From an uncultured Micavibrio sp. (lineage in GTDB: Bacteria > Pseudomonadota > Alphaproteobacteria > Micavibrionales > UBA2020), in assembly GCA_964534445.1 (NCBI GenBank), contig CAZHOE010000005.1:26969-90968 (forward strand): DNA of 64,000 nt. Reading direction: 5' to 3'. The translations under genes and the position numbers were made by a program. Below are positions 3,412 to 62,185 of this stretch, in pieces (the stretch's first letter is position 1; each line of letters begins with the position of its first letter). The notes beneath the pieces were generated by a model that did no database searches, had not been told where the DNA came from, and saw only the letters and a list, made by a program, of their open reading frames with translations.

Positions 3412-3570
3412 TTAGTGCGTCTTATTTTTTTTGTTCTGGTCATTGCCATTTTGAACATTTTTATCTTTACCTTCTTCAGATTGGCGCTTGTCCGTACGCA
3501 GCGATTTATCCTGCTTGTTCGGGTTTGCATTTTTCTGGTTCTGCTGGTTGTTTTCATTTTGCTTATACAT
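3412..3570 (-). CDS. Small N/Q/K-rich hydrophilin-like protein (52 aa)
   Basis: MYKQNENNQQNQKNANPNKQDK...; AAGGAG RBS, upstream EcfG-type promoter, downstream terminator. Confidence 0.7.
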   Translation of the reverse strand: MYKQNENNQQNQKNANPNKQDKSLRTDKRQSEEGKDKNVQNGNDQNKKNKTH

Positions 3571-3624
3571 ACTTCTATACTCCTTGTTGTGGGTTAATGA
3601 TTTTTTACTCATCTCGTATGTGCA

Positions 3625-3649
3625 AACGGAGAGCTGTAAGGGTTGTTCC
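3625..3649 (-). promoter_or_regulatory. EcfG/SigT-type promoter
   Basis: Minus strand GGAAC-N16-CGTT, exact consensus. Confidence 0.75.
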
Positions 3650-12886: not shown

Positions 12887-12912
12887 GGAACAAAAATACA
12901 GGCGAAGGCGTA
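12887..12912 (+). promoter_or_regulatory. EcfG-type promoter
   Basis: GGAAC-N17-CGTA on +. Confidence 0.5.
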
Positions 12913-12985
12913 AGTCAGATAACGGCGGCCGAGAGAAGGAGCCGCTCTTTTCAGGATATTTAGAAAAAGTTGAAGGAGAACTGCA

Positions 12986-13831
12986 ATGACAAAGCATACA
13001 CAATTTATGGCAGCCGCATCGCTGATCGCCCTTTTGGCTGCAGCGCCTGGAATGTCGCAGGCAGCTGAAACCGATGCCAAAGTAACAATAGATACATCTG
13101 CCGATGTAAAAAACAATAATCCTGATACGCCCGAAGTGGATACGGTGACCGAGCAGGATGTCAAAAAAGGATGGAAAAATACCAAAGATGCCGTAAAGGA
13201 AACATATGAAGATATGAAAGCGGCGCTCTTGGATGATGAATCCCGACTTGGCACGGAAATTACATACGATAAACGCGCCACGGCAGAATCTATCATCGGT
13301 CAGCCGGTGATGAACGAGAAAAAGCAGAAAATCGCAACAGTCGAGGATATTATCCTTGATGAAAACGGCATTGCCCGCCTGGTCGTTGTGAAAGACAGCG
13401 GTCTTCTGGGCTTTGGCAGCAAACTTGCGGCTTTCGAGTACAGCACCGTTGTGAAAAACGATGGCAAGGCCGAAATGGTCACACCGCTGACGGAAAAGGA
13501 TATCGATAGCGCGGCAACGTTTACTTATGACGCTGACGATGCGGATGAGAAAACACGCTTGATCCCGAACGGTGGCATCAGTGTCGCCCATCTGCTGGAC
13601 GGCAACCTGCATGATTCCGCCGGCAAGAAAGTCGCCGCGATTGAAGACGTGACATTCAAAGCCGGTAAAGCCGACATGATCCTGACAGATCCGGGCATGG
13701 GTTCCAGAACCGTTGCTTTAGGCTTTAAAACGGCTTCCTTTAGCAAAGAGAATGACACCGTCAACCTGAATCTGGATGCGCAATCCAGCACTCGCTTCGA
13801 GCAATTGAAACAGTCCAAATCCAACGAATAA
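12986..13831 (+). CDS. Secreted tandem PRC-barrel domain protein
   Basis: Signal peptide; IIGQPVMNEKKQKIATVEDIILD...GLLGFG, second repeat LLDGNLHDSAGKKVAAIEDV; AAGGAG RBS. Confidence 0.82.
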   Translation: MTKHTQFMAAASLIALLAAAPGMSQAAETDAKVTIDTSADVKNNNPDTPEVDTVTEQDVKKGWKNTKDAVKETYEDMKAALLDDESRLGTEITYDKRATAESIIGQPVMNEKKQKIATVEDIILDENGIARLVVVKDSGLLGFGSKLAAFEYSTVVKNDGKAEMVTPLTEKDIDSAATFTYDADDADEKTRLIPNGGISVAHLLDGNLHDSAGKKVAAIEDVTFKAGKADMILTDPGMGSRTVALGFKTASFSKENDTVNLNLDAQSSTRFEQLKQSKSNE

Positions 13832-14014: not shown

Positions 14015-14779
14015 CTAGGCCTTTTCGCCTGCTCCGGTACTGACCTCACCGCAAAACATATAGCCGACGCCGCGTACGGTTTTGATCAGCTGCGGATCGC
14101 GCGGATCATCCCCCAGTTTTTTGCGGATGCGTGCGATCTGAATATCAATCGCACGGTCATAGGCTTCGAATTCACCCTGTCGGGTCAGTTCAAATAAATG
14201 CTCGCGGCTCAGTACACGGTTCGGGGCTAAGACCAAGGCTTCCAGCAGACGGAATTCACCGCTGGTCAGGTCAGCCGTCTTGCCGACGGCATCAAACAGC
14301 TGATACTGGCGGCGATCCAGCACCCAACCCTGAAACGTGATACGCGGGGCTTTTTGCATACCTACTTCCGCTTTGTCGTTTGCGGCCGGCGTCTCGACGT
14401 TATTCGTCCGGCGCAGCACCGCCTTGATTCGGGCAGAGAGTTCGCGCATCTCGAAAGGTTTGGTCAGGTAATCATCTGCGCCCATTTCAAGGCCGACAAT
14501 GCGGTCTGCCGTTTCGTCCTTGCCGCTGACGACGATCACCGCCGCCTGACTTTTGCTGCGAATCTGCGTGAGCAGGCTCAGCCCGTCGTTATCGGGCAGG
14601 ATAAGGTCGAGCAAGATGATGTCCGGCGCTGCCGTTTCCAATTTGTCCAGCATTTCCGCGCCATTGCCCGCCGTCAGGATTTGATAGCCCTCCTGCTCCA
14701 GATAATGGCGAATCACGACCTGCAGGTCGCGATCGTCATCTACGCTTAAAACGGTCCCTTTATTTAACGGCACTATCAC
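14015..14779 (-). CDS. OmpR-family response regulator
   Basis: VDDD, LDLILP, GADDYLTKPF, DRAIDIQIARIRKK, TVRGVGY. Confidence 0.95.
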   Translation of the reverse strand: MIVPLNKGTVLSVDDDRDLQVVIRHYLEQEGYQILTAGNGAEMLDKLETAAPDIILLDLILPDNDGLSLLTQIRSKSQAAVIVVSGKDETADRIVGLEMGADDYLTKPFEMRELSARIKAVLRRTNNVETPAANDKAEVGMQKAPRITFQGWVLDRRQYQLFDAVGKTADLTSGEFRLLEALVLAPNRVLSREHLFELTRQGEFEAYDRAIDIQIARIRKKLGDDPRDPQLIKTVRGVGYMFCGEVSTGAGEKA

Positions 14780-14834
14780 ACCTTACGGAAAATAAAATCC
14801 TGATTTTGCTCATATTTTTCCAGATATACGCGAA

Positions 14835-14856
14835 TTGTTACAAAACAGAAACAAAA
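14835..14856. promoter_or_regulatory. Tandem-repeat box (candidate OmpR-family site), copy 1
   Basis: TTGTTACAAAACAGAAACAAAA; 20/22 identical to 18481-18502; GTTACAA/GAAACAA half-sites 11 bp apart. Confidence 0.6.
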
Positions 14857-14947
14857 AATTTCCATTCAGTAACAGCCCTGCCAAATGCCCGCTACAGGCC
14901 AGCCCTAGACTAGAGATGTAAGCAACAAAAACAAAGGAGCTTTTCTC

Positions 14948-15499
14948 ATGTTCAAACAGGAAGCACTGGTACACGAAATGGGTAACTTGCGCAAGTTCGC
15001 ACTGCGCCTGACCCGTAATGTGACCGAGGCGGAAGACCTCGTGCAGTCCACCCTCCTGCGCGCTATCGAGAAAAAGGACTACTTTCAGGACGGTACAAAT
15101 CTGTTCAGCTGGACTTCTAAAATCATGTTCAACCTTTTTGTAACAGGATACCGCCGCAAAAAAAAGTTCGAAAGCCAGTACGATCCCGAGCCCCATATCA
15201 TGAACTCGTCGGTGGAGGCACCACAGGAGATGTCGACAGACCTGATCCTGGTGCGTCAGGCGATGAAAAAGCTCAGCAAGGAACACCGCGAGATGCTGGT
15301 TCTGGTATGCATCAAGGGTATGCGCTACGAGGAAGTGGCAGAACATCTGGAGATCCCGGTCGGTACCGTGCGCTCCCGCCTGTCACGCGCCCGTCGCCAA
15401 TTGCAGGATCTGCTGGAAGCTTCGGAGCACTCGTCCGAGACGACACCCCCGGCAGCTCTGCGGAGCACGAACCACGCAGCGCGTATTATGGCTGCTTAA
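14948..15499 (+). CDS. ECF sigma factor (EcfG/SigT-like or related group)
   Basis: LRKFALRLTRN..EAEDLVQSTLLRA..FQDGTNLFSW, YEEVAEHLEIPVGTVRSRLSRAR; AAGGAG RBS. Confidence 0.92.
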   Translation: MFKQEALVHEMGNLRKFALRLTRNVTEAEDLVQSTLLRAIEKKDYFQDGTNLFSWTSKIMFNLFVTGYRRKKKFESQYDPEPHIMNSSVEAPQEMSTDLILVRQAMKKLSKEHREMLVLVCIKGMRYEEVAEHLEIPVGTVRSRLSRARRQLQDLLEASEHSSETTPPAALRSTNHAARIMAA

Positions 15500-15625
15500 G
15501 CGATAACACAACTTTAGCCCTGCTGCGGCTGGCAGAGAACGATCAGAACGCTTCAATGTCGGCCACAGCAAACACCCGGATGTGAATTTCTGACGATTCA
15601 CATCGACACCACCCGCCCTGACGTC

Positions 15626-15666
15626 GCAAGGCCCGGCTCCCCCGCCGGGCCTTGCTATTTCTTTTT
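15626..15666 (+). terminator. Terminator between sigma and hybrid kinase
   Basis: 12-bp perfect stem GCAAGGCCCGGC/GCCGGGCCTTGC, T-rich tail. Confidence 0.8.
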
Positions 15667-15686
15667 GTTATGTCTGTTTATGCGGG

Positions 15687-18065
15687 TCAGGCAACGCGCT
15701 TTTTGCGGGACAGGTATTCAACGATTTTCGATTTCAAATCAATCTCGACAATCGGCTTGGGCAGATACGAATCCATCCCCGCCTCGATGCATTTTTCCTT
15801 GTCACCGACCAGTGCATGCGCGGTCATGCCGATAATGGGCGTGCGCGGCAAGCTCTTTTCCTTCTCCATATACCGGATCTGCGCGGTGGCGGTAAAACCG
15901 TCCATTTCGGGCATTTGCACATCCATCAGAATCAAGTCGTAATTATTGTTCTTCCACATGTTCAAGGCTTCAAGACCGGTGCGTGCGACGTCATAATGAC
16001 AAGCCAGTCCATCCAGTAAATAGCTCAGCAGCACGATGTTACCTTCATAATCCTCGACCAGCAGGATGCGCTTTTGGCTGATTTCCTGCCCGCGAATATC
16101 CTCGCTGAGGCGGCGGGATAAACGCAGATCACTTTCATCGTCTTCCAGCTCTTCTTCGGTGCGCAGCGGAATAACCAACGTAAAGATTGACCCCTTGCCG
16201 AGCACACTTTCCATGGTGATATTCCCGCCCATCAGACGTGCCAGGCGCAAGGAGATCGGCAAGCCCAGCCCCGTCCCACCGTATTTGCGGGAAACGGAGG
16301 AATCCGCCTGTTTAAAGCGCTCGAAAATCATTTCGAAGTTTTGAGGATCGATGCCGATTCCTGTATCCCGCACATCGATGCGCAGAAAGGCATGATTGTT
16401 TTGCAAGGTCCGCAGCGCCGTGACCTCCACTTCACCTTTATCCGTGAATTTGATCGCATTGCCGATCAGGTTGATCAATACCTGTCGCAGGCGTGCGCGG
16501 TCACCCAAGCATTTCTGCTTGCGCACGTCTTCATAATCAAAGCGAAAATCAATCCCTTTTTCCTGCGCCTTGACGGACACAATGCTGACGACCTGTTCAA
16601 ACAGGCCTTGCAAGCCAAAGGATTTTTCCTCTATCTCCAGCTCTCCGCTTTCGATTTTGGAAAAGTCGAGAATATCGCTGATCAGCTCTTTCAATGACTG
16701 CGTGCTGGAGTTTAGCGTTTTGACCAGATGGCGCTGTTTATCATCCAGATTAACCTGATGGCTTTCAAAAATTTCGGCAATCCCGCTGATGGCCGTCAAC
16801 GGCGTGCGGATCTCGTGGCTCATATGCGCCAGAAAATCCGTCTTCGCACGGTTGGCTTTTTCCGCAGTCTCTTTTGCTTTTTGCAGTTTTTCCTCATAAG
16901 CCTTGATATGGCTGATGTCCGTATGCGCGCCCACCAGACGATAGGGCTTGCCGGTTTCATCATAGAGCGCCTTACCGCGCGCGTTCACCCAAACCCAGCG
17001 GCTGCTTTTGTGTTTCATGCGGAAGATGATGAGGTAATCCGGAATTTCGCCCGACAGATAGCGATCTATATGTCCCTGTACGCGCTCTTTATCTTCAGGA
17101 TGAATCAGGTCTTTGAACGATTGCATGGTAGAAGGAAACTTGCCGGGCTCGTACCCCAGCATCCCCCAGAACTGGCGGGAGTAAAACGCCGTGTCTTTGG
17201 CCAGATTCCATTCGAAAATACCATCGCTGGAACCTTCAATCGCGAGGCGGAACATTTCCTGCACACCGCCGCCGCGGCTGCCGGACGCTTCTTCATCACC
17301 CGCAGGTTTGCGCCGCCCCACAAGGACCAGCCCGATCATGAATACAAAAGCAATTGCCGCACAACCCGCCAGCAAAGAAAGACTGAAGTAATAGCGCTGC
17401 TTTTGCAAAAGCTTTGTGCGTTCTTGCAGGGTTTCCTGTTCGGTCAGCATAATCTCGCCCGTTACCCGCGCAATGTTTTCGCGAATGGTATCGATGCTCG
17501 CAATCGTCGGCTTGGGTTTCGGCGGCAGGGGTAACACGGTGTGTAGTGGCGGCTCGTCTGTCTTTTCTGCGGTTTCTTCTTTCGGTTTTTCCGCAACCGG
17601 CTTTTTCGCCGGCGGGGTAACACCTTCCGCTACGGCAAAGGCGGCCATTTCTGCCGCACGTTCATCGCGGAATATCTGCGTTGCTTCATCAAGGCGCCCG
17701 GAAAGATTCAAGAAATAATGCTGCAATTCGTTCAGACGGCTGATCTGCGCCGTGCTGTATTGCATCATCGTGTTCAGCTCGGCAATGCTGTTTGAAATGT
17801 GCGCCTTGCTGTCATCATAGACGGTGATGTATTTCTCATCCCCGCTCAGCACAAAGCGCTGCTGCGCACCTGCAAGGCGTTCGAATTCCGTCGCCAGACT
17901 TTGGGTTTTAGCGATGACCTGATGGGTGTGCTCTACCCATTCCATGGCACGATCAATCGATTGTGCGCCCGTGAACACGAACAACCCAAGCGTGCCGAAG
18001 CCCAGCATCAGCACCATAGAAAAGACAATGTACAGTCTGTAAGGCCTCAAGCTGGCAAACGTCAT
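15687..18065 (-). CDS. Hybrid sensor kinase CHASE3-PAS-HisKA-HATPase-REC
   Basis: WVEHTHQVI/QQRFVLSGDEKY CHASE3, PAS (IHPED), MSHEIRTPL, GGTGLGL, LMDVQMPEMDG. Confidence 0.93.
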   Translation of the reverse strand: MTFASLRPYRLYIVFSMVLMLGFGTLGLFVFTGAQSIDRAMEWVEHTHQVIAKTQSLATEFERLAGAQQRFVLSGDEKYITVYDDSKAHISNSIAELNTMMQYSTAQISRLNELQHYFLNLSGRLDEATQIFRDERAAEMAAFAVAEGVTPPAKKPVAEKPKEETAEKTDEPPLHTVLPLPPKPKPTIASIDTIRENIARVTGEIMLTEQETLQERTKLLQKQRYYFSLSLLAGCAAIAFVFMIGLVLVGRRKPAGDEEASGSRGGGVQEMFRLAIEGSSDGIFEWNLAKDTAFYSRQFWGMLGYEPGKFPSTMQSFKDLIHPEDKERVQGHIDRYLSGEIPDYLIIFRMKHKSSRWVWVNARGKALYDETGKPYRLVGAHTDISHIKAYEEKLQKAKETAEKANRAKTDFLAHMSHEIRTPLTAISGIAEIFESHQVNLDDKQRHLVKTLNSSTQSLKELISDILDFSKIESGELEIEEKSFGLQGLFEQVVSIVSVKAQEKGIDFRFDYEDVRKQKCLGDRARLRQVLINLIGNAIKFTDKGEVEVTALRTLQNNHAFLRIDVRDTGIGIDPQNFEMIFERFKQADSSVSRKYGGTGLGLPISLRLARLMGGNITMESVLGKGSIFTLVIPLRTEEELEDDESDLRLSRRLSEDIRGQEISQKRILLVEDYEGNIVLLSYLLDGLACHYDVARTGLEALNMWKNNNYDLILMDVQMPEMDGFTATAQIRYMEKEKSLPRTPIIGMTAHALVGDKEKCIEAGMDSYLPKPIVEIDLKSKIVEYLSRKKRVA

Positions 18066-18195
18066 AAAAAAGCCTGTCCGGAAATCGCGTTTCGTCGCAG
18101 GCTGATTTAAGCATATCCCGCGCCGGATGGCACGTAAAAAATCCGGCGCGAGGATATCTTTTATACATTTATATCAGCTGCTTATATGACTTTTC

Positions 18196-18372
18196 TTATA
18201 CGGGTGGCGCTTTACCGCGCAAAACGTGGAAAACAGCAGCCACGATAAACAGCACCAGAAAAACCATGAATAAAATACGAGCAATATCAACCGATACGGC
18301 TGCAATACCGCCAAATCCCAGAAAACCGGCAATCAGCGCCAGTATCAGGAAAGCAAGGGCTAATCTCAGCAT
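18196..18372 (-). CDS. DUF1328 (UPF0391/YtjA) small membrane protein
   Basis: [24 protein letters not shown]...IARILF; AAGGAG RBS. Confidence 0.92.
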
Positions 18373-18412
18373 GTTTCGTCTCCTTTGTTTGTTTTGTTTT
18401 CTTAAGAAAACC

Positions 18413-18438
18413 AACGAATGGAAAAAACATATGGTTCA
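18413..18438 (-). promoter_or_regulatory. EcfG-type promoter for DUF1328
   Basis: TGAAC-N17-CGTT on -. Confidence 0.6.
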
Positions 18439-18451
18439 GGCATTTCTTTAA

Positions 18452-18476
18452 GGAACTCCACTATGTGAACATCGTT
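18452..18476 (+). promoter_or_regulatory. EcfG-type promoter for anti-sigma-like ORF
   Basis: GGAAC-N16-CGTT, exact consensus. Confidence 0.75.
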
Positions 18477-18480
18477 GGAC

Positions 18481-18502
18481 TTGTTACAAAAGGGAAACAA
18501 AA
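18481..18502. promoter_or_regulatory. Tandem-repeat box, copy 2
   Basis: TTGTTACAAAAGGGAAACAAAA, overlapping the predicted TSS of the 18452 promoter. Confidence 0.6.
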
Positions 18503-18558
18503 TGACGCTCCAGAGGAATAAAAACACTTAAAATAACAAAAATGATAAAAATAATAAA

Positions 18559-18741
18559 ATGACATGTAGGATTACACACATGGATATCGAAGCACTGGTC
18601 GACAACGAACTCGACCCCCAAACAGCGGCGCGCGTCCGCTACGCCGTCGAACACGACGCGCAACTGCACCGTGCCTATAACAAGCTGGTGGCACAGAAAA
18701 AATTGTTGAACATGTGGTGGCACAGTCAGCAACACCATTGA
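18559..18741 (+). CDS. Small soluble protein resembling an anti-sigma N-terminal domain
   Basis: IEALVDNELDPQTAARVRYAVEHDAQLHRAY..L..QKKLL resembles the L-AYVDGEL----EVE--L N-terminus of RsiW/PrtR-like anti-sigmas; no TM; start uncertain. Confidence 0.6.
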   Translation: MTCRITHMDIEALVDNELDPQTAARVRYAVEHDAQLHRAYNKLVAQKKLLNMWWHSQQHH

Positions 18742-61600: not shown

Positions 61601-62185
61601 ATGACCGATACCGCATCTCCCGCCGGCAAGACGCCTGCTGACATGCCCGATCTTGCGGCATTGATGCAGGCTGCGCAGAACGGGGATGCGGCGGCCTATG
61701 CCGCCTTGCTGACGACGATCAGCCCGATCCTGAAACGATTTTTGAAATCACGCCTGTTCAGCGATACGGCGCTGGATGATATTTTGCAGGAAATTCTGCT
61801 GGCCATTCATACCGCGCGCCATACCTATCGCCCCGAACAGCCCTTCGCGCATTGGATGTTCGGTATCGCCCGCCATAAATTGATTGATTATTTCCGCCGC
61901 CACGGCCGCAAACAAAGCCGCGAGGTTTCCGGAGACGATCTTGTAACCTTTATGGCCGATACGGCGAATACGCCCGAAGAGGCCTTGTCTTATAAAGACA
62001 TACGTCAGGCACTCCGCCGCCTGCCCGACAGGCAGCGCAAAGTGGTGACCTTGACGAAAATAGAAGGTTATTCAATGGCCGAAACGGCGGCTAAACTGGG
62101 GATGAGCGAAACAGCGGTCAAAGTCACCGCCCACCGCGCCTATAAAAAACTCAAGGAATGGTTGATTGCCGATGGATACGCCTGA
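61601..62185 (+). CDS. ECF sigma factor, SigF/ECF16-like
   Basis: QEILLAIHTARHTY, ARHKLID, AVKVTAHR; followed by NrsF. Confidence 0.9.
   Translation: MTDTASPAGKTPADMPDLAALMQAAQNGDAAAYAALLTTISPILKRFLKSRLFSDTALDDILQEILLAIHTARHTYRPEQPFAHWMFGIARHKLIDYFRRHGRKQSREVSGDDLVTFMADTANTPEEALSYKDIRQALRRLPDRQRKVVTLTKIEGYSMAETAAKLGMSETAVKVTAHRAYKKLKEWLIADGYA
61942..61968 (+). promoter_or_regulatory. SigF-type promoter inside the sigma CDS
   Basis: TGTAACC-N16-CGAA exact. Confidence 0.6.

Follow-up and report, generated by a model that had tools for sequence, protein, structure and literature searches.

Gene content of the cluster

This report concerns a gene cluster around an extracytoplasmic function (ECF) sigma factor in the genome of an uncultured Micavibrio sp. 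(2,640,989 bases, 99.9% complete). The cluster lies in a stretch of 64,000 nucleotides (nt) that is called the window below (G000:C5:26969–90968). It holds the genes of an OmpR-type response regulator, the sigma factor, a hybrid histidine kinase, a DUF1328 protein and a protein of 60 amino acids (aa), together with two copies of a 22-bp box, and it probably serves as a general-stress module with an EcfG-type sigma factor. The features of the cluster, in their order along the forward strand, are the following.

14015–14779, minus strand: OmpR/PhoB-family response regulator of 254 aa with REC and Trans_reg_C domains (Pfam), divergent from the sigma gene
14835–14856, plus strand: box copy 1, the promoter-distal pair of half-sites GTTACA and GAAACA (direct reading and pattern search)
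14837–14911, plus strand: full array of six half-sites with the −10-like TAGACT (alignment A3 of 11 promoters)
14906–14911, plus strand: −10-like TAGACT (direct reading)
14948–15499, plus strand: ECF sigma factor of 183 aa, EcfG (ECF15) orthologue (Pfam r2 and r4, reciprocal matches)
15626–15655, plus strand: terminator-like hairpin of 12 pairs, 10 of them G-C, between the convergent sigma and kinase genes
15687–18065, minus strand: hybrid histidine kinase of 792 aa, CHASE3-PAS-HisKA-HATPase_c-REC (Pfam)
18196–18372, minus strand: DUF1328 small membrane protein of 58 aa, 130 nt upstream of the kinase gene on the same strand (Pfam, 7.8e-15)
18413–18438, minus strand: EcfG-type promoter-like TGAAC-N17-CGTT facing DUF1328 (motif, counterparts in relatives)
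18452–18476, plus strand: EcfG-type promoter-like GGAAC-N16-CGTT facing the small open reading frame (ORF; motif, conserved in relatives)
18481–18502, plus strand: box copy 2, a single pair of half-sites (direct reading, pattern search and weight matrix)
18559–18741, plus strand: small soluble protein of 60 aa, candidate anti-sigma factor (alignment A2, predicted fold and predicted complex)

The domain calls that an earlier note on this DNA had made for the regulator, the ECF sigma factor and the kinase hold in Pfam. The regulator joins a receiver domain (Response_reg, 1.1e-28) to a winged-helix domain (Trans_reg_C, 6.6e-25), both well above their cut-offs, and by this pair of domains it belongs to the OmpR/PhoB family. 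It is not OmpR proper: its best NCBIfam model is the OmpR equivalog NF007005, at 207.9 bits and below the cut-off of 331 bits. The order regulator, sigma factor, kinase, DUF1328 and small ORF is found again in related loci, so that conservation of gene order, which the same note had named as a check, is borne out. The loci compared numbered 28, 10 of them close and 18 distant, the latter from other families of the order. The regulator gene is divergent from the sigma gene in all 10 close and all 18 distant loci, and the kinase gene adjoins the sigma gene in 9 of the 10 close loci and lies at most 600 nt away in 14 of the 18 distant ones. A consensus scan detected no terminator-like site between the DUF1328 gene and the kinase gene, and because of this the sigma factor may also raise kinase levels through read-through from DUF1328.

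The sigma factor and the PhyR–NepR switch

The sigma factor carries the Pfam r2 and r4 regions, and its score for PhyR_sigma2 (27 bits) equals the cut-off of that model. It is the best match in its own genome to two reference EcfG proteins, which other Alphaproteobacteria encode in phyR-nepR-ecfG loci (84 and 87.5 bits, the next proteins scoring 63 and 51 bits). In the opposite direction its best match is the phyR-linked sigma factor in four of five PhyR-bearing genomes, and in the fifth the phyR-linked sigma factor comes second behind a paralogue. By reciprocal best hits the sigma factor is an EcfG (ECF15) orthologue, with an identity to phyR-linked EcfG proteins of only 32–42%. Its top chain in the PDB is 5uxx_A, and the partner chain in that entry is named NepR. 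The subfamily, called with profile A1 at E ≤ 1e-45, is present in 70 of the 121 genomes of the order and in all eight of its families; the best score of the profile in 150 other families of the class was 5e-38.

EcfG, NepR and PhyR are described, in the excerpted text of PMC3892343, in essentially all free-living Alphaproteobacteria. The earlier note had seen no PhyR, NepR or HWE/HisKA2 kinase in the window and had proposed a genome-wide search for phyR and nepR, and the searches agree with it, as neither gene was detected in this nearly complete genome. The best score for PhyR in the genome was 36 bits (model NF006623, cut-off 240 bits); the NepR family PF18557 gave no match at E ≤ 1, a phmmer search with two NepR proteins returned nothing, and no kinase matched HWE_HK or HisKA_2. 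PhyR was found in 0 of the 121 genomes of the order and likewise in none of the 87 with a completeness of 90% or more, and the same model exceeded its cut-off in the Caulobacter control and in 22 of 151 genomes that sample the class with one genome per family. It follows from the latter count that many small-genome lineages of the class are also without PhyR. A canonical phyR locus elsewhere in the genome was considered and rejected: three PhyR_sigma2-like matches on contig C1 are plain ECF sigma factors without receiver domains.

Other ECF sigma genes occur in this genome. Three of them (225, 155 and 187 aa) lie by flagellin-like and flagellar hook-associated-like genes (locus L004, G000:C1:62000–76000), and a further one, of 194 aa, lies in the window at 61601–62185 on the plus strand and ranks second or fifth among the matches to the two reference EcfG proteins.

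The 22-bp box and the promoter of the sigma gene

The 22-bp box occurs twice with 20 of 22 positions identical, as had been pointed out before: TTGTTACAAAACAGAAACAAAA is copy 1 (14835–14856, plus strand) and TTGTTACAAAAGGGAAACAAAA is copy 2 (18481–18502, plus strand). Both mismatches fall in the NN spacer, at two positions that also vary among orthologues, and all 20 specified bases are the same in both copies. By simple arithmetic the chance that two random changes among 22 positions both hit the spacer is 1/231, an indication that the contact bases are under selection. With up to three mismatches the window contains two matches and 100 dinucleotide shuffles of it contain none; in the whole genome the exact pattern is found at these two sites alone. 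A weight matrix was made from the copy-1 sites of 10 relatives, with the window's own copy excluded, and it ranked copy 1 first (34.6 bits) and copy 2 second (30.4 bits) genome-wide, with the third site at 21.7 bits and the maxima of five shuffled genomes at 16.6–22.4 bits. The repeat of the box is more than chance. The third site, which scores inside the range of the shuffled genomes, is located in the DUF1328 leader (18387–18408, minus strand), and CA-rich AACAAA runs are present upstream of the Shine-Dalgarno sites of both the sigma gene and DUF1328.

Copy 1 lies where the earlier note had placed it, between the divergent regulator and sigma genes and 5′ of the TAGACT at 14906; it begins 113 nt and ends 91 nt upstream of the sigma ATG (14948). 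It is the distal part of a longer array, in which half-sites start at 14837, 14848, 14859, 14869, 14880 and 14891, i.e., with a spacing of 10–11 bp, and are followed by TAGACT. The alignment of 11 regulator-sigma spacers (A3) has invariant columns every 11 bp, namely AC at 14840–41, AC at 14851–52, TTTC at 14859–62, AC at 14872–73 and AC at 14894–95, as well as the T, A and T of the −10 element, and the same layout recurs in the 18 more distant loci. Of the 28 related loci 25 have the box, with up to four mismatches, 90–140 nt upstream of the sigma ATG; elsewhere in the 652,374 nt of those loci there are 20 matches, several of which are second arrays in front of another small gene (see below). 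On this conservation, copy 1 is genuine conserved cis-DNA and the distal unit of a six-half-site array.

The distal half-site TTGTTACA coincides with the OmpR repeat of E. coli, given as tTTGTTACAT in the excerpted text of PMC5438342. No −35-like hexamer was called at the sigma promoter in a consensus scan, and no GGAAC-type promoter was seen upstream of the sigma gene itself when the spacer was read directly and in alignment A3. Six phased direct repeats in place of a −35 element correspond to the layout of an OmpR/PhoB-type activator, and the adjacent regulator would then be the protein that binds them and activates the sigma gene. The OmpR-type anatomy that had been claimed for copy 1 is upheld, and copy 1 is conserved together with the divergent regulator.

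It is also conceivable that some other regulator, and not the adjacent OmpR-type protein, binds the array, or that the CHASE3 kinase is not the sensor of that protein; we regard this as distinctly unlikely. The kinase is tied to the regulator by synteny alone, and in 4 of the 18 distant loci it is not next to the sigma gene. Moreover, Pfam finds no Hpt domain in the kinase, no stand-alone Hpt protein was found in the genome, and the five Hpt matches of the genome all lie within frames of 568–1409 aa, which counts against the role proposed here for the kinase. The earlier note's inclusion of the kinase in the circuit accordingly goes further than gene order allows, and the adjacent CHASE3-PAS hybrid kinase is better described as the likely sensor. 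On the other hand direct repeats with an 11-bp phase that match the OmpR half-site are a typical target of winged-helix proteins of the OmpR/PhoB type, and the regulator gene adjoins the array in 28 of 28 loci.

EcfG-type promoters within and outside the cluster

Two promoter-like motifs stand back to back between DUF1328 and the small ORF, TGAAC-N17-CGTT (18438–18413, minus strand) facing the former and GGAAC-N16-CGTT (18452–18476, plus strand) facing the latter. GGAAC-N16-CGTT is the EcfG motif in the excerpted text of PMC3892343. At least one such motif is present in 10 of the 11 related loci that have the DUF1328–small ORF region. In locus L046 (G023:C1:247864–250884), where one relative carries a second sigma copy, a box, the sigma gene, GGAAC-N15-CGTT and the small ORF follow each other on one strand; this second copy thus has its own box, and no regulator gene is adjacent to it. 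The divergent −35 elements are 13 nt apart in the window (18439–18451) and 2–3 nt apart in close relatives (GTTCAGCGGAAC). Remodelling in this species has affected this spacer as well as the A-rich leader that bears copy 2.

At other places in the genome the motif stands before genes for CsbD, YflT, a 17-kDa glycine-zipper lipoprotein, an aldo/keto reductase, an acylphosphatase and an RpoH-like sigma factor. Such genes are typical of the general stress response. The presence of the motif upstream of stress-type genes is suggestive only, because a crude enrichment test was weak. In this test GGAAC/TGAAC-N16/17-CGTT preceded an ORF with a Shine-Dalgarno sequence in 20 of 87 cases and GGAAC alone in 14 of 45, and eight control patterns did so in 3–25%; the filter was simply a Shine-Dalgarno sequence plus an ORF within 110 nt, and the result, which counts among the points against the model proposed here, was not used as support.

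The weak genome-wide enrichment also bears on the question of which sigma factor reads the motif. At least eight other ECF-like frames are present in the genome, among them the one at 61601–62185 in the window, and one of these might use GGAAC-N16/17-CGTT while the sigma factor of the cluster serves a different regulon. This is very unlikely in our view. The sigma factor of the cluster is the clear best EcfG match (84–87.5 bits, against 63 bits or less for the others), and two conserved GGAAC-type promoters travel with it across the order.

Some further sites resemble the motif. One is found upstream of the regulator gene:

12887–13831, plus strand: GGAAC-N17-CGTA at 12887–12912, one base off CGTT, followed by a PRC-barrel ORF at 12986–13831

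This ORF (281 aa) starts about 75 nt after the motif and is a possible further sigma target within the cluster. It is inserted between an EF-hand gene and the regulator gene; in several close relatives a distance of only about 430 nt separates these two. In the window at 3415–3649 (minus strand) GGAAC-N15-CGTT (3649–3625) lies 54 nt before an ORF of 52 aa, which is very hydrophilic, rich in Q, N and K and without a Pfam family, and which is possibly a small stress protein of the same regulon. On contig C1, at G000:C1:411333 and G000:C1:55600 (minus strand), TGAAC-N17-CGTT precedes by 40–41 nt the start codons of two paralogues, large secreted proteins of 620 and 590 aa with near-identical N-termini.

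A candidate anti-sigma factor of 60 residues

The most likely start of the small ORF is 18559, giving 60 aa, as relatives conserve the residues R-I-T that precede the second ATG. The family to which it belongs (alignment A2, 59–105 aa) is conserved as protein. A scan of 1.84 billion representative sequences gave 520 matches at E ≤ 0.001, and the best 150 of these 520 are 55–101 aa long with the exception of one long repeat protein; a search aimed at longer relatives gave one match, of 251 aa. Within the order the family (called at E ≤ 1e-5) is found in 53 of 121 genomes. The small gene lies less than 7 kb from the sigma gene in 38 genomes, usually at 2.5–3.2 kb, and less than 600 bp away and directly downstream in 3.

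The AlphaFold 2 model of the protein consists of three helices (mean predicted local distance difference test, pLDDT, 91.7). When it was compared with 48,161 representative chains of known structure, the five best matches were all cytoplasmic anti-sigma domains bound to ECF sigma factors, namely RslA (3hug_B, Z score 6.6, root mean square deviation (rmsd) 3.9, 57 residues aligned), RsiW (5wuq_C, 5.8, 2.4, 57), PupR (5cam_A, 5.6, 2.6, 50), MucA (8z6g_A, 5.4, 2.7, 52) and RseA (1or7_F, 5.4, 4.1, 51); RskA, ChrR and DdvA were lower in this ranking. The predicted complex of the small protein with the sigma factor scored 0.62 (0.62, 0.62 and 0.60 in three runs), and the best of three control pairs scored 0.05. 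At least 66% of contacts are shared between the runs, the pLDDT of the partner is at least 78, and the contacts of the small protein are predicted to lie on sigma residues 95–156, i.e., in region 4. A mark of 0.62 is attained by 58 of 80 solved complexes and by 2 of 110 mismatched pairs, counts that apply only roughly here, as own alignments were used for the present prediction. The small protein is therefore a candidate anti-sigma factor of the EcfG orthologue and a predicted binder of its region 4, for which the models are support and not proof. The earlier note had called this ORF anti-sigma-like and had proposed a complex prediction with the sigma factor; its position behind a conserved EcfG-type promoter and the pass in that prediction are in agreement.

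Several observations weigh against this assignment. The small protein reaches no curated Pfam or NCBIfam cut-off, its profile has no match to solved anti-sigma factors among PDB sequences, and Foldseek gave no match in the PDB at E ≤ 0.001. Its structural Z scores are 6.6 or less, and scores below 8 are common for helical models. The pass of the complex may reflect likeness instead of binding by this particular copy, since complexes of sigma and anti-sigma factors have already been solved. Matches to zf-HC2 are weak, being seen in 5 of 11 family members with a best E of 0.0012, and the window's protein reaches 16.3 bits with a cut-off of 22.2. In 18 of 70 sigma-bearing genomes the small protein was not detected. 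Two other assignments were discarded: PDB-sequence matches of the profile to an adhesin repeat and to FieF were taken as chance, and NepR has a probability of 0.2% in hhalign.

It could thus be that the 60-aa protein is not the anti-sigma factor of this sigma factor and has some other stress-induced function, or that it is the antagonist of another ECF sigma factor. The missing curated family, the lack of likeness to NepR, the middling fold scores and the 18 genomes without it would fit such a role, to which we nevertheless give little credence. The sigma factor is present in 52 of the 53 genomes that have the small protein, the two genes are usually near each other, all of the top five fold matches are anti-sigma domains, and the complex prediction passed with clean controls.

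The second copy of the box

Copy 2 begins 5 nt past the CGTT of the promoter that faces the small ORF, about at the predicted start of transcription, and spans about +1 to +22; seen from the other side it is about 43–64 nt upstream of the −35 element of DUF1328. The overlap with the predicted start site of this promoter, as the earlier note described it, is thereby confirmed. A contig of 306 nt that comes from another study's run (X7) and from a near-identical strain is identical over 18386–18691, and since this independent contig covers copy 2, copy 2 is not an assembly quirk of the present record. Contigs of this kind carry no evolutionary information, and no RNA run that contains this DNA was listed.

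The conservation of copy 2 is very different from that of copy 1. In 12 of 12 related loci copy 2 is absent, and the best score in the corresponding spacers is 10.9 bits against 30.4 bits here; the 10.9 bits belong to the closest relative, which keeps one half-site on the opposite strand. Among 41 genomes of the family, searched with up to two mismatches, exactly one match was found in 7 of 8 genomes of the same genus, two copies with no mismatch were found in the present genome alone, and one other genome has two matches with two mismatches each. Copy 2 moreover consists of the first pair of half-sites only, half-sites 3–6 being missing. All of this runs counter to a fixed role of copy 2 in the circuit. 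Conservation of the box had been proposed as a check, and the outcome is divided: copy 1 passes it (25 of 28 loci) and copy 2 fails it. The claim that the shared box is a conserved design link between the two promoters is therefore not sustained. Given that copy 2 begins close to where transcription from the small-ORF promoter is predicted to start, repression by a regulator bound there is a fair guess; as copy 2 is not conserved, such repression of the antagonist would be at most a trait of this species, and not the general design that had been suggested.

It is possible, if on balance improbable, that the core of the system consists only of the regulator, the sigma factor with its regulon and feedback through the small anti-sigma factor, and that copy 2 is young and has no role, or a role other than repression. 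Such another role might be to activate a sigma-70-type promoter of the small ORF, or to act on the divergent DUF1328–kinase transcript. The absence of copy 2 from the 12 related loci, the single match in 7 of 8 genomes of the genus and the missing half-sites agree with a young site. In addition a TAAAAT at 18555–18560 lies about 74 nt after the start of copy 2, to be compared with 71 nt for the −10 element at copy 1, and the consensus scan called −10-like hexamers at 18550–18560, but this stretch is simply A+T-rich. A site without any role is at odds with the rank of copy 2 as the second-best in 2.64 Mb, far over the shuffled maxima, with its location within the same gene cluster, and with the match of all 20 specified bases to copy 1. 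We accordingly keep damping of the antagonist through copy 2 as a conditional step, limited to this species.

A second array in other families

A conserved ORF of 83–92 aa is preceded, at a distance of 93–134 nt, by a second complete array of six units in 6 of the 18 distant loci.

L074:9142–9494, plus strand: second array and 83–92-aa ORF
L073:1154–1510, minus strand: second array and 83–92-aa ORF
L077:10430–10802, plus strand: second array and 83–92-aa ORF
L079:1596–1966, minus strand: second array and 83–92-aa ORF
L082:8629–9003, plus strand: second array and 83–92-aa ORF
L084:9388–9797, plus strand: second array and 83–92-aa ORF

The 83–92-aa protein is encoded in 30 of the 121 genomes of the order, 28 of which also have the sigma factor, and in none of the 9 genomes of the genus to which the window belongs, the window's own genome included. 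It has no Pfam match at E ≤ 1, and its model (beta-beta-alpha-alpha-beta, pLDDT 84.7) has only generic alpha/beta fold matches with Z scores of 5.8 or less. A second whole array before another small gene is what would be expected of a regulator-dependent promoter module. It seems from these loci that the regulator has two dedicated promoters in many lineages and that the second one varies by lineage.

It is tempting to speculate that across the order a purely transcriptional cascade has taken the place of the PhyR–NepR switch, with one regulator that both makes EcfG and frees it from a minimal antagonist, and with a mode of release that differs by lineage. Most families would use the second array before the 83–92-aa protein, a hypothetical new antagonist of the anti-sigma factor; the window's genus would have lost that gene, and the present species would have gained a site on the anti-sigma promoter instead. 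We consider this extended scheme unlikely as a whole.

A proposed model of the circuit

The reading that we prefer, with a probability of roughly 0.6, is that the cluster is the general-stress module of this predatory Micavibrio-like order, in which EcfG has been kept, the PhyR–NepR switch has not been found, and control would proceed as follows. The sequences, their conservation, the orthology of the sigma factor and the searches for PhyR and NepR are the observations on which it is built, and from these we infer each binding event and each regulatory sign. The phosphorylated OmpR-type regulator would bind three tandem dimer sites, made up of the six half-sites in 11-bp phase of which copy 1 is the distal pair. 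These dimer sites would replace a −35 element, so that the regulator switches on the sigma gene from the TAGACT −10 element, and the adjacent CHASE3-PAS hybrid kinase would be the likely sensor. The sigma factor would then read GGAAC-N16/17-CGTT promoters, including the two that stand back to back in the cluster. One of these would drive DUF1328 and perhaps continue into the kinase gene, and the other would drive the 60-aa protein with its anti-sigma domain, which by binding to region 4 of the sigma factor would provide negative feedback. In this species alone, with copy 2 on the start of the anti-sigma promoter, the phosphorylated regulator may in addition damp the antagonist.

The overall model of the earlier note survives in part. 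An EcfG without PhyR, the array that contains copy 1 and the anti-sigma-like ORF stand, and the link through a shared box, the repression of the antagonist and the link to the kinase lack support as a general design. If the model is correct the cluster would be a compact circuit, consisting of a regulator, a sigma factor, an antagonist of 60 aa and a well-defined promoter module of 75 bp, and it would be a first entry point for understanding how Micavibrio-like predators sense stress or prey. On ECF sigma factors or PhyR in such predators, literature searches returned nothing.

Comparison with known systems

The small protein resembles the class I anti-sigma domains of RslA, RsiW, MucA, RseA and ChrR in its predicted three-helix fold and in the predicted contacts to region 4. 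It differs from them in that it stands alone with about 60 aa, without a fourth helix, a membrane part or a sensor part, and in that zinc ligands are missing (H-x3-C-x2-C is not present in A2 and the protein scores below the zf-HC2 cut-off).

At ompF and ompC of E. coli OmpR sites are arranged in tandem as F1–F3 and C1–C3. The three tandem pairs at the sigma gene, which abut the core promoter, resemble this arrangement, and the half-site TTGTTACA is shared with EnvZ/OmpR as far as the E. coli repeat is given in the excerpted source (PMC5438342). Unlike in EnvZ/OmpR, the regulator here scores below the cut-off of the OmpR equivalog, the sensor does not resemble EnvZ and the putative target is a sigma gene.

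Control of an ECF sigma factor by an OmpR-type regulator is known logic, and the term new circuit, which the earlier note had used, is overstated in this respect. In Streptomyces coelicolor an OmpR-family regulator and its adjacent kinase set the level of the ECF39 sigma factor SigE through transcription (SigE-CseABC), according to the excerpted texts of PMC7826278 and PMC8999054. The ECF classification, in the part available, places two-component systems beside ECF15 and ECF246, which have an anti-sigma factor, and beside ECF32, ECF234 and ECF39, which have none, with ECF39 being directly transcribed under its system. ECF246 was considered as a possible published group for the present sigma factor, and the one other paper found to name ECF246 deals with Leptospira. 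The present cluster is similar in having two-component genes beside the sigma gene in 28 of 28 loci and a conserved putative regulator array in the sigma promoter. It belongs to another phylum and another ECF group, its kinase is a CHASE3 hybrid, and a candidate anti-sigma factor is conserved, whereas ECF39 is described without one in the excerpts considered.

The closest relation is with the EcfG-NepR-PhyR system (ECF15). The sigma factor is orthologous to phyR-linked EcfG, promoters of the GGAAC-N16/17-CGTT type stand before candidate targets that are typical stress genes (CsbD, DUF1328, YflT), and the gene of a tiny soluble antagonist lies behind an EcfG-type promoter in both. The differences are that no PhyR, NepR, HWE or HisKA_2 protein was found here and no partner switch is evident, that the candidate antagonist is like an anti-sigma domain and not like NepR, and that the sigma gene has only the OmpR-type array and no EcfG-type promoter of its own. 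No literature report was found of an EcfG orthologue wired to an OmpR-type regulator with an anti-sigma-domain antagonist and without PhyR, although the subfamily may already be included in the supplementary tables of the ECF classification. A deep lineage that has kept the sigma factor and the promoter type of the general stress response, and that appears to have swapped the antagonist and the input, would be a natural test of which of its parts are dispensable.

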